From Escherichia phage PP01: DNA of 64,000 bases. The notes beneath the pieces are model-generated. The model worked only from the letters and a program-made list of their open reading frames with translations, was not told where the DNA came from and did no database searches. Positions 1,490 to 43,079 of this stretch are shown here, in pieces. The first letter of the stretch is position 1. Each line of letters starts with the position of its first letter. The stretch lies in sequence record NC_054930.1; one strand, written 5' to 3'. The position numbers and the translations under genes were made by a program.

Positions 1490-2344
1490 TCACAATGAAG
1501 AAAATTCTTTAACTAAAGCCTGTAATGAAGCCTCTATTGGATATCCATTCTTAACTAACATTTTCCTAAACATTACATGTTTAGGACGATTATATGATAT
1601 CCACAATTCATACAATTTATCTTTATTATCCCAATGATAGCCTTTTCGTCGAGATGCTATATGAGCTTTTCTAATCTCCGGATTTTTCCAACTAGCAGCT
1701 ACTGAATTTGATATAGCTATTTTATATTCAGGTTTTGATAAAGCAGCACGAACAGCCTTTTGGTGTTTAATTTTATTTTCTTCGTTATTAAACCATTCCC
1801 TTGAAGCCATTGAAATTTTTTGTTTTGTTTTAAAATTATTTAATCTTTCTTTATTATCTTTCCTATTTTTTGCTACTGAAAAATATTTTAATGCCCTTTC
1901 TCTAGCAGCATTTCTATTTTGCGGATTTGAATAATACTGTTGAAGCCTTTTTGATATTGTGTCACTTACATCTTGTTTTATAAAACTATATTCAGCAGCT
2001 ATTAAATCAACTTCGGCTAAAGATAAATTTTTATATGTTTTTCCTGACATCATTCTATTTAAAGCATTTAACATTTTTCCATTTTTACCTTTTGCTAATA
2101 AGAAGTGTGCTTTAAAATGATTAAAATGACTTAAATTAACTAAATTCCATGTAGATTTTAAATATTCAGGAAATATTGATTTAGGAAGCACGTGGTGTGC
2201 TTCCGTTTTACCTGGAGTTTTAACAGTTGAATTCACAGAAATAAAATTAATGTAAGACTTGGCGTCTTCTTCACTCAACGCTAATTTTTCAACTAATTCC
2301 TTTATTAAAAATTCATCATTAATGTCAAGTTTAAAATTCTTCAC
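1490..2344 (-). CDS. Free-standing HNH-family homing endonuclease-like protein (Mob-like), 284 aa
   Basis: ORF track; HNH-like motif EAHHVLPKS...NLVNLSHFNHFKAH; basic C-terminal half; GTG start overlapping the stop of the upstream small ORF. Confidence 0.6.
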   Translation of the reverse strand: MKNFKLDINDEFLIKELVEKLALSEEDAKSYINFISVNSTVKTPGKTEAHHVLPKSIFPEYLKSTWNLVNLSHFNHFKAHFLLAKGKNGKMLNALNRMMSGKTYKNLSLAEVDLIAAEYSFIKQDVSDTISKRLQQYYSNPQNRNAARERALKYFSVAKNRKDNKERLNNFKTKQKISMASREWFNNEENKIKHQKAVRAALSKPEYKIAISNSVAASWKNPEIRKAHIASRRKGYHWDNKDKLYELWISYNRPKHVMFRKMLVKNGYPIEASLQALVKEFSSL

Positions 2345-17407: not shown

Positions 17408-17460
17408 ATTATACCACATCCTTGTGGCAAAGTAAACTAGTTTAGTGCATTTAGTGCATT
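17408..17460 (-). promoter_or_regulatory. T4-type early promoter
   Basis: Plus strand attataccac...gtaaactagtttagtg (reverse complement of -10 / GTTTAC / UP pattern). Confidence 0.5.
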
Positions 17461-18327
17461 GTTCAGTTTAGAACGTTGCTTCGTGAGATTTTTGACTTTT
17501 TCTTGAGCTTTTTCTAGCATCTTTTCAGCTTCTAGCACTTCATTAGTTGCTTTAACGAGTTCATCATCTACTGCCTTGATAGACTTCTCAATCGCATCGG
17601 CATGCCATTTTTCAACAGGTTTAAGACTCGGATTTTCAACAGGAAGAAAATTCACTTTATTGAATTTCCATGCATCCTTATTACCTGAACTATACATCCA
17701 AAATTTAGGATCGTTTGATGAGTAATTGGATAAATTTAAATTTAAGTTATCTTGCACTTCTTGCTTTTTCTCTTGCGTGACTTCGTCCTTTCTCAAAAAT
17801 TCATATTTAAATGAAACGATCATATCAAGTTCATATGTTGTTGTGTCTAATTTAAATCGTTCGAAATGTTGTGAAATCTTAGACTGAACAGCAGCAACAA
17901 CATCCATATACTTAAATGCTTCTGTCAACTGCGATTTAAGACATTCGCAAATTGAAAGAGAATTTTTTGTATTAGGTTTAAAGCTAATTCGTGCAGTTCT
18001 GTTATTTTCTTTTAATGGTCTTACTTCCATCTGAAGAGTATAACCGTCAAATTTCAGGTTCTTTAAGTTAATGTCAGAACCTTTTAATCGACTAGCCGTC
18101 GACAAAATTTGCTTTAATTGTCTACGGAACAGAGCAATAAATCTCCATTCAATACGATAATGATTTGGATTGAAAAATCCAGATGATAAATCGACCTTAC
18201 TTTGACCAACGCCTTGAACAAATAGAGGATTTTTATAATCAATAGTTTTACAGAAATCGGTGAGTTGCTCACGAGCAGTCATTTGTGTAATATACCCCCG
18301 CTTTACTAAAATGACGTAACCATTCAC
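17437..18327 (-). CDS. Hypothetical protein, ~296 aa, with C-terminal coiled coil (array member 3); start uncertain
   Basis: ORF track; C-terminus EVLEAEKMLEKAQEKVKNLTKQRSKLNNALNALN. Confidence 0.55.
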   Translation of the reverse strand: MNGYVILVKRGYITQMTAREQLTDFCKTIDYKNPLFVQGVGQSKVDLSSGFFNPNHYRIEWRFIALFRRQLKQILSTASRLKGSDINLKNLKFDGYTLQMEVRPLKENNRTARISFKPNTKNSLSICECLKSQLTEAFKYMDVVAAVQSKISQHFERFKLDTTTYELDMIVSFKYEFLRKDEVTQEKKQEVQDNLNLNLSNYSSNDPKFWMYSSGNKDAWKFNKVNFLPVENPSLKPVEKWHADAIEKSIKAVDDELVKATNEVLEAEKMLEKAQEKVKNLTKQRSKLNNALNALN

Positions 18328-18463
18328 TGCTATTCATATATTTAAAGTGAATATCACGATTAACTTTATCAGGGTCTAAATTATTTTGGCACAAAAATGT
18401 CATAACATCACGAGTATAGCTGGCATTACGAACCATATCTTCAATTTGAGAACGAGTTTTCAT
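18269..18463 (-). CDS. Hypothetical protein, 64 aa
   Basis: ORF track; overlaps the 5' end of the downstream ORF. Confidence 0.35.
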   Translation of the reverse strand: MKTRSQIEDMVRNASYTRDVMTFLCQNNLDPDKVNRDIHFKYMNSSEWLRHFSKAGVYYTNDCS

Positions 18464-18471
18464 GGTGTTCC

Positions 18472-19305
18472 TTAAGATTTAAGTAAATCAACAATTTTAA
18501 TTAACTTTTCACGCTCAGATTTAGCTTTACTACTCAATCCAGATAGTCTGAAAATTTCATCGTCATATTGTTGAATAGAAATATTCAGCTCTTCAATCTG
18601 CTTATTAAAATAATCAATTTGTTCAGAATGTTTTTCGTTACTACGAACTGGTACAGGTTTTGTAGGCAATTTAGTTGAACTGGATTCATCCGGGCGATAA
18701 ATTAAAATACAACTTGAACCAATAGGGCATTTTGCACCAGATGAATATTCTAATGTTCCAGCTTCTTTTAAAACTTCAAAAGCTAAACAGAGATGATGCC
18801 CCATATTAACATAATCTGTAGAGTGAGCTCTGATGTAATAATCATCGCCACGAATACTAAATTTAAAGCATTTAAGGTCTTCTGTATTATTGGTCTTAAA
18901 AATCATTTGTTTATCTAGACCTTTAGCTAATCGAGCGCCTAATGCTAATAATCGGCGTTGATTTTCCCACAAATCCGCAATCATTTGATCGAATGATAAT
19001 TTTGGCATCAGTCGACCATAAAGGTCATATCCTTTATTATAATTACGAAGAATTTCACTCGCATTAATACGAGACAACGCTCCAATTTTATTAAGGGCTT
19101 TCATAATACGATTAGATAAACTCATTCCAGACCCGTTTGTTCGCTGTAAATGTTTTTCTAATCCAAATCCAATATCAACTTTAAACTTATCTAAAATTTC
19201 TGCATGAACATCTCTGTCGATAACATTCAAATCCAAAGTTGAGTTAAATCTATGAAAAAATTTATCTGGCTCTGCACTGCGAAATACAGTCCATTCATTC
19301 ATCAT
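18472..19305 (-). CDS. Hypothetical protein, 277 aa, with C-terminal coiled coil (array member 4)
   Basis: ORF track; linker LPTKPVPV then heptad-rich C-terminus. Confidence 0.6.
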   Translation of the reverse strand: MMNEWTVFRSAEPDKFFHRFNSTLDLNVIDRDVHAEILDKFKVDIGFGLEKHLQRTNGSGMSLSNRIMKALNKIGALSRINASEILRNYNKGYDLYGRLMPKLSFDQMIADLWENQRRLLALGARLAKGLDKQMIFKTNNTEDLKCFKFSIRGDDYYIRAHSTDYVNMGHHLCLAFEVLKEAGTLEYSSGAKCPIGSSCILIYRPDESSSTKLPTKPVPVRSNEKHSEQIDYFNKQIEELNISIQQYDDEIFRLSGLSSKAKSEREKLIKIVDLLKS

Positions 19306-19368
19306 TTTTTATTAACTAAAGATTTAATTACTGCATTGACATTATTAATTACTACTGACATATTTTCC

Positions 19369-37402: not shown

Positions 37403-37479
<77 letters not shown>

Positions 37480-38189: not shown

Positions 38190-38261
38190 TGGCCCTGGGT
38201 GGAATTGAACCACCATCTGGCGATTATGAGTCGCTTGCTTGAACCTTCCAGCTACAGGGCC
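38190..38261 (-). tRNA. tRNA with anticodon CAT (Ile, AUA-decoding, by analogy to T4; or Met)
   Basis: Acceptor GGCCCTG/CAGGGCC, anticodon loop CTCATAA, T-arm GGTGG-TTCAATT-CCACC. +/-2 nt. Confidence 0.7.
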
Positions 38262-38267
38262 TTGATA

Positions 38268-38340
38268 TGCTGATTGACGGAATCGAACCGCCGACGTCCT
38301 CATTACAAGTGAGGTGCTCTACCTACTGAGCTAAATCAGC
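38268..38340 (-). tRNA. tRNA-Thr (anticodon TGT)
   Basis: Acceptor GCTGATT/AATCAGC, anticodon loop CTTGTAA, T-arm GGCGG-TTCGATT-CCGTC. +/-2 nt. Confidence 0.8.
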
Positions 38341-38347
38341 GAAATTA

Positions 38348-38434
38348 CGGAGGCGATAGGATTTGAACCTATGAGTCGCCGGAGCGACTGCCGGTTTTCA
38401 AGACCGGTGCATTAAACCACTCTGCCACGCCTCC
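38348..38434 (-). tRNA. tRNA-Ser (anticodon TGA), long variable arm
   Basis: Acceptor GGAGGCG/CGCCTCC, anticodon loop CTTGAAA, T-arm ATAGG-TTCAAAT-CCTAT; 2-nt spacer to tRNA-Pro. +/-2 nt. Confidence 0.8.
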
Positions 38435-38436
38435 AG

Positions 38437-38510
38437 TCTCCGCGGCAGGATTTGAACCTGCGACATTCTGCTCCCAAAGCAGACGCTCTACCAAACTGAG
38501 CTACACGGAG
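38437..38510 (-). tRNA. tRNA-Pro (anticodon TGG)
   Basis: Acceptor CTCCGTG/CGCGGAG (one G-U), anticodon loop TTTGGGA, T-arm GCAGG-TTCAAAT-CCTGC. +/-2 nt. Confidence 0.8.
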
Positions 38511-38522
38511 TAAATTAAATTT

Positions 38523-38594
<72 letters not shown>

Positions 38595-38600
38595 AAACTT

Positions 38601-38687
38601 TGGTACGAGAAGTGGGACTCGAACCCACAAGGAAATCATTCCGCAGCATTTTAAGTGCTGTGCCTTTACCAATTTGACCATTCTCGC
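38601..38687 (-). tRNA. tRNA-Leu (anticodon TAA), long variable arm, CCA encoded
   Basis: Acceptor GCGAGAA/TTCTCGT, anticodon loop CTTAAAA, T-arm GTGGG-TTCGAGT-CCCAC; 1-nt spacer to tRNA-Gln. +/-2 nt. Confidence 0.8.
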
Positions 38688-38688
38688 G

Positions 38689-38761
38689 CTGGGAATAAAG
38701 GACTCGAACCTTTGCATCCTGGAATCAAAATCCAGTGCCTTACCAACTTGGCTAATTCCCA
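38689..38761 (-). tRNA. tRNA-Gln (anticodon TTG)
   Basis: Minus strand reads TGGGAATTAGCCAAGTTGGTAAGGCACTGGATTTTGATTCCAG...GGTTCGAGTCCTTTATTCCCAG, matching my recollection of T4 tRNA-Gln. +/-2 nt. Confidence 0.85.
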
Positions 38762-38858: not shown

Positions 38859-39146
38859 TTACCATTTATGATAATACATATTTACGATGCATTCAAGACC
38901 TAAAGGATTCTTGAAAATATCATATTCAAGAGGACCTTTTTCCGTTTCAATAAAGAAATCAAAGTTAACTGTATTAAATTTACGGTCTTCCTTCACTAAT
39001 TTAACTTGAGAAGATGAACGGTCAATGTAAACCTTTTCAACTTCAAAACATGTTAAAACGCCATAATCATCAATCAAGGCTTTAGCCGCGTCTTGATCAT
39101 ATTTATATCCATTTTCAATGGACGATACTTTAGCATAAAGAATCAT
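38859..39146 (-). CDS. Hypothetical protein, 95 aa
   Basis: ORF track; no capsid-targeting leader. Confidence 0.5.
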   Translation of the reverse strand: MILYAKVSSIENGYKYDQDAAKALIDDYGVLTCFEVEKVYIDRSSSQVKLVKEDRKFNTVNFDFFIETEKGPLEYDIFKNPLGLECIVNMYYHKW

Positions 39147-39148
39147 TA

Positions 39149-39558
39149 TCAGCCTTCATCAACAATAGTATGAGTGTGGGCATTTACGATTTGCCACCAG
39201 TCGAAACGATTGGAACCATAATCTGGTTTATTTTCATTTTCTTTAATGATATCACGCAGTTTATCTTCTGTTTCAGCATACGCAATTAAATCATCATATC
39301 CGCCACAAGGATAATAATTATCACCTGCGAATAAAAGAAAATTTACCTTAGATGGATTTACGTAATAATGGTCTTTAGGATATTTAGTTCCTCTCCAATC
39401 AGTTACTTCAACATAACGGTAAGAAAATCCATTTTTACTTTCAATCCAACTCCACGCTTCAAAAGGAGTATTAAAAACTTTATCAGGTATTAAATTACCT
39501 TCAAAATGAGAAGGATTTGCATAATCCCAGCATAAACATAGTATTCGTTAATACTCAT
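39149..39558 (-). pseudogene. Frame-disrupted gene: 22-codon ATG-initiated ORF followed in another frame by a ~133-codon stop-free frame with no ATG/GTG/TTG
   Basis: Hand translation of minus strand: MSINEYYVYAGIMQILLILKVI* from ATG ~39556-39558; adjacent frame open from ~39547 to ~39149 (...CWDYANPSHFEGNLIPDKVF...NAHTHTIVDEG). Either a frameshift pseudogene or a recoded gene. Confidence 0.4.
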
Positions 39559-39744
39559 CTATTCACCTTTAGAAATTTTATCCATAACGATAGCGATTAA
39601 ACCAATTAAAAATGCTACTACAAGCGAAAACACATTTTCTGCTGTAGTTAATAATCCGCATATAAATCCAACAAACATTGAAAAACTAAAAGCGGAAGCA
39701 GAAATTGCAATAGCAACATTTCGAATTAATTCACAACGTTTCAT
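39559..39744 (-). CDS. Small membrane protein, ~61 aa (start at MKRCELIRN)
   Basis: ORF track 39559..39804; internal ATG has a GGAG ribosome-binding site and lies downstream of the promoter; hydrophobic helices. Confidence 0.5.
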   Translation of the reverse strand: MKRCELIRNVAIAISASAFSFSMFVGFICGLLTTAENVFSLVVAFLIGLIAIVMDKISKGE

Positions 39745-39769: not shown

Positions 39770-39830
39770 GTAATAGTATCACTACTAAAACCCCGTGTAA
39801 ACAACTTTGTGAAATTATTTTAAATCTTCT
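39770..39830 (-). promoter_or_regulatory. T4-type early promoter (repeat copy A, 3' of the ipI-locus gene)
   Basis: Plus strand ggtaatagtatcacta...gtgtaaacaactttgtgaaattattttaaatc; near-identical to the copy at ~40100-40160. Confidence 0.6.
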
Positions 39831-40072
39831 AATCGTTTCTTCATCTTAGAACCATTTTTAGCGATTTCTCCTGCGTCAGAGCATAATGCTAAAAGTGCTT
39901 TAACTTTAGTTTGGTCTCCTTTAAAAGACGAAGGATCGACTGCAGCAGCAAGTTCTTTAATACGAGAGAAAAGACGCTCAGCTTCAGCTAAAGCCATTCC
40001 AAGCTTTACTTCCATACCATGAGAAGATTCAGTGATAATAGTTTCTGTAGCAAACTCTTTATAAGTTTTCAT
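39815..40072 (-). CDS. Internal-protein-like gene with capsid-targeting leader at the ipI locus, 85 aa
   Basis: N-terminal MKTYKEFATETIITE leader; located between the tRNA region and 57B, where T4 carries ipI; sequence differs from what I recall of T4 IPI. Confidence 0.65.
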   Translation of the reverse strand: MKTYKEFATETIITESSHGMEVKLGMALAEAERLFSRIKELAAAVDPSSFKGDQTKVKALLALCSDAGEIAKNGSKMKKRLEDLK

Positions 40073-42254: not shown

Positions 42255-43079
42255 TTAGATATTTGACCAGACTTTGTTTGCAGAGAAACGTTTTCCTTTT
42301 GAAACGAACTGCTGAAGTGGCATCAACACAACGTTCGCCCAGTCTTTCGGGGCGATTTCAACAAGGCTACCCATAATATTACCAGGTATATATGCCTTAA
42401 TCATTTGGTCTGCACCCCTAAATCCTTTCACTTGACTCCAATCAATTTTTAATTTCGTTTTATTAGTAATAGTAGGTGTATTTGAATATTGCTTTAAAAG
42501 CTCTTCTAGGAATTGCTGACGAGCTTTAGGTGGAATATAGTGCAAGTTTAATCCGTACATTAAATTATGCTTACCTAAACCAAGGTAAATTATCAAAGGA
42601 AATTTATCCCAGTAAGGAAGAGTTTCCTTGTGTTTAGCATCATAAGCAAAAGCATATATTCGTCCCGGCTGCGGGCGAACAACTTTATGCCCTTTTACTT
42701 GCTTAATAGTTTCAGCAAACCACTTTCTGGTTTTATTATTAATTGCTGCGCCTTCATTACGAATTTTATCGCGCAATGTTTGTCTGAATGAATTTATCAT
42801 AAGCAGTTGTCTTTCTTGCTTATTGAGTTTATTCATTGGTTTTGATTCAAGCTTTTGAATCTTTTCAGCCGTTTTAATTCCTGAAGCATATTTTGACATT
42901 GCTGAAGTAAACGTAGAGTATTTGATTCCTCTTTCTTCAGCAAATTGCTTTCCTGTCATTCCTTTTGCTTTGGCCTTTTTATATTCAAGACCTATCTGAA
43001 TCCATTTCTTTTCGTTTAATGATTGCTTAACCTTTGGAACTTGAGGAGTGCTTTCATTAATTATTTGAAAAATAGCCAT
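42255..43079 (-). CDS. 2: DNA end-protector protein gp2
   Basis: 274 aa; position and length as T4 gp2. Confidence 0.88.

Follow-up and report, generated by a model that had tools for sequence, protein, structure and literature searches.

The trna.3 locus of Escherichia phage PP01: a conserved T4-family gene split by one missing base in the sequence record

The locus and its neighbours

The stretch of Escherichia phage PP01 analysed here (NC_054930.1; 64,000 nt, referred to as the window) belongs to a T4-like phage (Tequatrovirus), and its best matches in the phage collection are about 97% identical. On the minus strand the genes are ordered gene 1 (dNMP kinase), 57A, 57B (Acb1), Ip5, trna.4, trna.3, trna.2, seven tRNAs, segB and tRNA-Arg. 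The locus at 39149–39558 on this strand is the ortholog of T4 trna.3, recognised by alignments, synteny and PHROG 1411, with a broken frame and a length of 410 nt vs 411 nt in relatives. Upstream of it is the trna.4 ortholog (39559–39744, minus strand), encoding a predicted membrane protein of 61 aa (phrog_1692, E = 6e-35; Pfam Phage_T4_Y07D), the TAG stop codon of which abuts the trna.3 ATG. Immediately 3′ is an intact trna.2 ortholog of 95 aa (38859–39146, minus strand; phrog_2023, E = 1.1e-47; Pfam Phage_T4_Y07B), which has its own Shine-Dalgarno-like GAAGG. The seven tRNA genes (Gln, Leu, Gly, Pro, Ser, Thr and Met) were placed by ARAGORN at 38190–38761 on the minus strand, and the eighth, tRNA-Arg, at 37403–37479 beyond segB.

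trna.3 is an early gene, small and conserved, on the transcript that continues into the tRNA cluster. A promoter-like site upstream of trna.4 (39773–39801, minus strand) matches the consensus with TTTACA, a 17-nt spacing and TG-TACTAT, and no terminator-like site was found after it, which together fit a single transcript that takes in trna.4, trna.3 and trna.2 and goes on into the tRNAs. The site is a putative promoter, and it is probable that the trna.4–trna.3–trna.2–tRNA transcript would start there.

Two observations concern the wider surroundings. The slot of T4 ipI is occupied in the window by Ip5, an internal protein of 85 aa (39815–40072, minus strand); as in Shfl2, there is no Ip6 between Ip5 and trna.4, and Ip6 is present in T6, JK23 and e11/2. 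Elsewhere, about 860 bp at 1466–2327 of the window are missing from e11/2, and the ORF found there (1490–2344, minus strand; 284 aa), which bears an HNH-like motif (...EAHHVLPKS...N...H...), probably encodes a mobile homing endonuclease that has inserted close to genes 46/47.

Within 39149–39558 the coding sequence is spread over two frames of the minus strand. The 5′ fragment (39490–39558) is an ORF of 22 codons and a TAA stop, MSINEYYVYAGIMQILLILKVI*, which is opened by an ATG at 39558 and closed at 39490–39492. A preliminary description of this DNA had credited that ATG with a good context, and it does have one: the trna.3 ATG, directly past the trna.4 stop, is preceded by AAAGGTGAATAG, a Shine-Dalgarno-like sequence, and orthologs are arranged alike. 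The 3′ fragment (39149–39547, minus strand) lies in the −1 frame and consists of 132 sense codons, close to the 133 or so first reported, followed by a TGA at 39149–39151. It comes after ...DEY*, reads RILCLCWDYANPSHFEG...THTIVDEG, contains no ATG, GTG or TTG codon, and is the sole start-less stop-free stretch of at least 100 codons in the 64-kb window, where there are 227 open stretches of at least 60 codons. When the 5′ fragment is compared with ortholog proteins, its residues 1–11 (MSINEYYVYAG) are native Trna.3 and its remaining 11 are out of frame. The 3′ fragment begins with seven out-of-frame overlap codons (RILCLCW) upstream of the lesion and then codes for Trna.3 residues 12–136, including the conserved C-terminal core NFLLFAGDNYYPxGGY...FDWWQIVNA, defined by invariant columns in alignment A2.

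The long frame had initially been considered real coding sequence on the ground that a run of this length is unlikely by chance. The conclusion stands, but its length gives it only mild support: shuffling the window 200 times yielded a mean of 0.54 stop-free stretches of at least 132 codons (none of them without a start), so that the length of the stretch, taken alone, is only mildly to moderately improbable. The frame is instead recognised as coding by its homology, as it matches PHROG 1411 (E = 2.6e-51) and shares 98% identity with a T4-type protein.

The identity of the gene is clear from several lines of evidence. The translation repaired by one base matches phrog_1411 over residues 5–136 in a profile search, at the E-value given above, and the repaired protein is 98% identical to a protein (P0001) that bears the Pfam label PF26894 (Phage_T4_Y07C), an assignment resting on precomputed labels. 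The annotations of T4, T6, Shfl2, JK23, 303Ecol101PP, sb3 and KNP5 place one 411-nt gene, trna.3, between trna.4 and trna.2; its product used to be called 'uncharacterized 16.0 kDa protein in segB-ipI intergenic region'. The gene order typical of the Trna.3 family (Ip/ipI, trna.4, trna.3, trna.2, tRNA cluster) is preserved here, and substitutions relative to orthologs are mostly synonymous. In comparison with T4 itself, the gene sits in the same place, flanked by trna.4 and trna.2 and upstream of the tRNA cluster, and its DNA is about 97–98% identical; the difference is that the frame in the window has lost one G, so only a 22-residue peptide is possible as written. Family members otherwise have one unbroken ORF of 126–136 codons, whereas the window copy is split at 39526–39528, which makes the locus a member of the Trna.3 family that is either disrupted or mis-sequenced. 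A search of the literature on trna.3 and the segB–ipI region found nothing relevant.

Homologs of Trna.3, in 18 clusters, are limited to T4-like phages. Alignment A2 (with L005 1823–2206 and L012 41264–41647) separates two N-terminal types, the T4 one in proteins of 136 aa and another in proteins of 127 aa from e11/2 and ime09, both joined to a nearly invariant C-terminal half. At codon 135 the window has Glu, which it shares with the 127-aa variant, and the seven T4-type orthologs have Arg or Lys there; the match of the terminal IVDEG to the 127-aa type suggests a mosaic origin for the window gene. The conserved C-terminal domain (about 65 residues) is also found by itself, as a small protein, in unrelated phages (BFVD; phrog_17649, phrog_4811). 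Examples are a 70-aa protein of Salmonella phage Melville, with 69% identity, and proteins of Staphylococcus and Klebsiella phages, and all of them are uncharacterised.

The missing base and other homopolymer indels

The lesion is a GGG run at 39526–39528 (minus strand) in place of the GGGG of relatives. In alignments with Shfl2, JK23, 303Ecol101PP and L017/L018 (A1 and A3), the relatives have TAT GC(C/T) GGG GAT TAT GCA where TAT GCT GGG ATT ATG CA stands in the window, the sequences being otherwise colinear. The missing G sits at codons 11–12 (Gly-Asp) of trna.3. With one G put back, the product is 136 aa long; it agrees with the T6 and 303Ecol101PP proteins everywhere but at residue 135, and with T4 Trna.3 everywhere but at residues 131 and 135. 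Against the seven orthologs listed above, the window trna.3 has only two private substitutions, and the frame break has left no trace of decay in the gene. As there are just these two substitutions and no stop in 132 displaced codons, the lesion must be either very recent or not real. The comparison with orthologs had been proposed in the preliminary description as a check, and it places the indel at 39526–39528; since the orthologs are intact in a single frame, its outcome is the one which that description had itself set against recoding.

The deletion was found nowhere else. It is absent from all 125 phage records matching a 101-nt junction query, every one of which spans 102–103 nt, and the ten contigs that encode an identical Ip5 neighbour all have an intact Y07C gene of 126–136 aa. 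A 28-mer of the deleted junction has no exact match in the GTDB genome set or the JGI metagenomes, in which one and three copies of the intact junction are present, respectively. An exact-pattern scan of IMG/VR found neither the deleted junction nor the intact one, which served as positive control, so this negative carries no weight. Two products of other broken ORFs of the window described below, the 277-aa product of nrdC.6 and the 64-aa product of nrdC.5, were looked up as signs of a second assembly, and neither is on record; reads of the phage were likewise not found. One further record, ABHPSE010000001, in which no trna.3 gene is called, was suspected of an independent loss; this was rejected, as the DNA there is unbroken and matches that of an intact 134-aa copy exactly.

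The window was also compared with e11/2, Shfl2, ime09 and ECP2301 for private indels, and two more genes are affected. In nrdC.5 a G5 run at 18299–18303 (minus strand) stands where ime09, ECP2301, Shfl2 and e11/2 have G4 or fewer, and the 342-codon gene is broken up into two ORFs, one of 64 and one of 296 codons (18269–18463 and 17437–18327, minus strand). In nrdC.6 (18472–19361, minus strand) an A6 run at 19305–19310 (minus strand) replaces the A7 of Shfl2, ime09 and ECP2301; here the native frame ends after 19 codons at a TGA overlapping an ATG, and re-initiation at that ATG could give an N-terminally truncated product of 277 aa. The intergenic DNA of the window has four more private one-base insertions, at about 21904, 30751, 35993 and 40081. 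The sites of these intergenic insertions are a terminator-like hairpin, the Shine-Dalgarno region upstream of vs.6, the e.7/e.8 region and the Ip5 leader, the last with T5 in the window and a T4 run in relatives. No frame-breaking indel relative to e11/2 was found in the structural-gene block at 42267–64000.

Relatives have private one-base frameshifts of their own, at a lower rate. Shfl2 (L011, around locus 32500) has a private GG near the 5′ end of vs.8, where others have GGG, and e11/2 (L004, around 30623) has a private T5 vs T6 in nrdC.9 that alters the C-terminus. No private frameshift clearly inside an annotated gene was found in ime09. The apparent nrdC.9 frameshift in the comparison of the window with e11/2 was accordingly rejected as a lesion of the window, being private to e11/2. 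Set beside the examples in Shfl2 and e11/2, three private frameshifts in one window is a high number, though not an extreme one.

Origin of the split frame

The split frame is almost certainly a plain one-base indel in trna.3 and not a case of recoding. Both options had been put forward at the outset; the 1-nt indel is upheld by the 411-nt single-frame orthologs and the one missing G, and programmed frameshifting is left with a private layout and no signals. What remains to be weighed is how the base came to be missing from the record, and for this we infer from the sequences an even chance of an artefact, and a chance slightly below even of a genuine mutation.

If the record is at fault, an option that the preliminary description had also named, the phage has GGGG and an intact trna.3, and the G was lost as a homopolymer miscount in sequencing or assembly, an account that we consider about as likely to be right as wrong. 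It draws on the three private one-base homopolymer changes (G4 to G3, G4 to G5 and A7 to A6), each in a gene that hundreds of relatives carry unbroken, on the lack of decay in trna.3 downstream of the lesion, and on the absence of the deletion from any other sample. It has more difficulty with where the changes fall, as essential genes are unhit and the 22-kb structural-gene block is without a frame-breaking indel vs e11/2. Furthermore, two of the three sites are runs of four bases, where platform errors are rarer than in the longer A/T runs that are abundant in this genome.

A genuine and recent null mutation, in which replication slippage in the G4 run dropped one G in the phage lineage, is a strong contender that falls just short of an even chance. 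Trna.3 would then be cut to a 22-residue peptide and the gene would be a very young pseudogene in a dispensable region, which we hold to be nearly an even proposition. Spontaneous frameshifts in T4 classically arise in homopolymer runs, as in the Streisinger model and the rII hot spots, and the present case resembles those frameshifts in that a one-base length change in a mononucleotide run leads to a premature stop in a non-essential gene. All three lesions are in accessory genes without known function, and relatives too carry single private frameshifts in accessory genes. Essential genes make up about 40% of the window and none of the three lesions lies in them, an outcome with a chance of about 1 in 5; this confinement to accessory genes mildly favours real mutations filtered by selection. 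On the other side, trna.3 is intact in all 125 records and ten further contigs, which argues for purifying selection on the gene, and three simultaneous knock-outs without further decay would all have to be very recent.

Other accounts have far less to recommend them. It is improbable, to a degree that leaves little room for it, that the GGG is real and some full-length Trna.3 is still made through low-level unprogrammed −1 slippage at GCU GGG AUU, or that the isolate is a natural triple knock-out of trna.3, nrdC.5 and nrdC.6, in which case these conserved accessory genes would be dispensable or counter-selected on its host.

Still less probable is that programmed −1 frameshifting, bypassing of the gene 60 type or transcriptional slippage fuses the 22-codon ORF to the long frame and so produces full-length Trna.3. 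Recoding does occur in T4, at gene 60, and a −1 shift exactly past the GGG would restore the ortholog sequence ...YVYAG-DYANPS... (spanning peptide ...EYYVYAGDYANPSHFEGNLIPDK). Restoration of the ortholog sequence by a −1 slip is, however, implied by any one-base deletion. The two-frame layout is private to the window; it is shared by none of the 125 phage records, and every ortholog examined is in a single frame. Programmed −1 frameshifting as known from dnaX and the phage tail chaperone G/GT is similar in that an upstream ORF overlaps a downstream −1 frame, but the window differs in having no slippery heptamer, downstream structure or conserved layout. There is no X XXY YYZ heptamer in the zero frame of the 57-nt overlap, where GGG and TTTT are the only runs, and the minimum free energy of the 146-nt region, calculated for pseudoknot-free folds, is −25.7 kcal/mol vs −23.7 ± 3.5 for shuffled sequences (z = −0.58). 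Transcriptional slippage is associated with an A or T homopolymer of about eight or more at the junction; the junction here is GGG, and a G3 run is far too short for it. The analogy with T4 gene 60 which had been drawn initially does not apply. The two cases have in common an interrupted reading frame and the phage family, but in gene 60 an untranslated insert of 50 nt is flanked by matching take-off and landing codons, whereas the window trna.3 has no inserted segment, and is colinear with intact orthologs and one base shorter. The like private lesions of nrdC.5 and nrdC.6 in the same window also speak against recoding.

Finally, the probability that the long frame without a start is open merely by chance, in DNA that is non-coding or antisense, is negligible, for although shuffles yield about 0.5 stop-free runs of at least 132 codons, the idea is refuted by homology (PHROG 1411, E = 2.6e-51; 98% identity to annotated proteins) and goes against the conserved synteny and the mostly synonymous substitutions vs orthologs.

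Consequences for annotation and for the phage

Returning to the one-base indel, expression of the locus as written can be pictured from the arrangement of its frames. Ribosomes would start at the normal ATG, probably by coupling to trna.4, because the TAG and ATG abut; they would translate 11 native codons and then 11 wrong ones, and would stop at 39490. The other 125 codons, holding the whole conserved core, would be left without a start codon. Should the lesion be real, the conserved core of Trna.3 is lost and about 340 nt of untranslated RNA lie ahead of trna.2, conceivably with some polar effect on trna.2 and the tRNAs.

The locus is an ordinary copy of a known conserved T4-family gene, frameshifted or mis-sequenced, and has no bearing on translational recoding. 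Its main relevance is to annotation and quality control, for which the lesions to be considered are those at 39526–39528, 18299–18303 and 19305–19310. An annotation should name the locus trna.3 and mark it as frameshifted, either as a pseudogene or as a suspected sequencing error, and not as a recoding candidate. If all three lesions are real, the phage is a natural knock-out of three conserved T4-family genes, which would be modestly useful for tests of their function.
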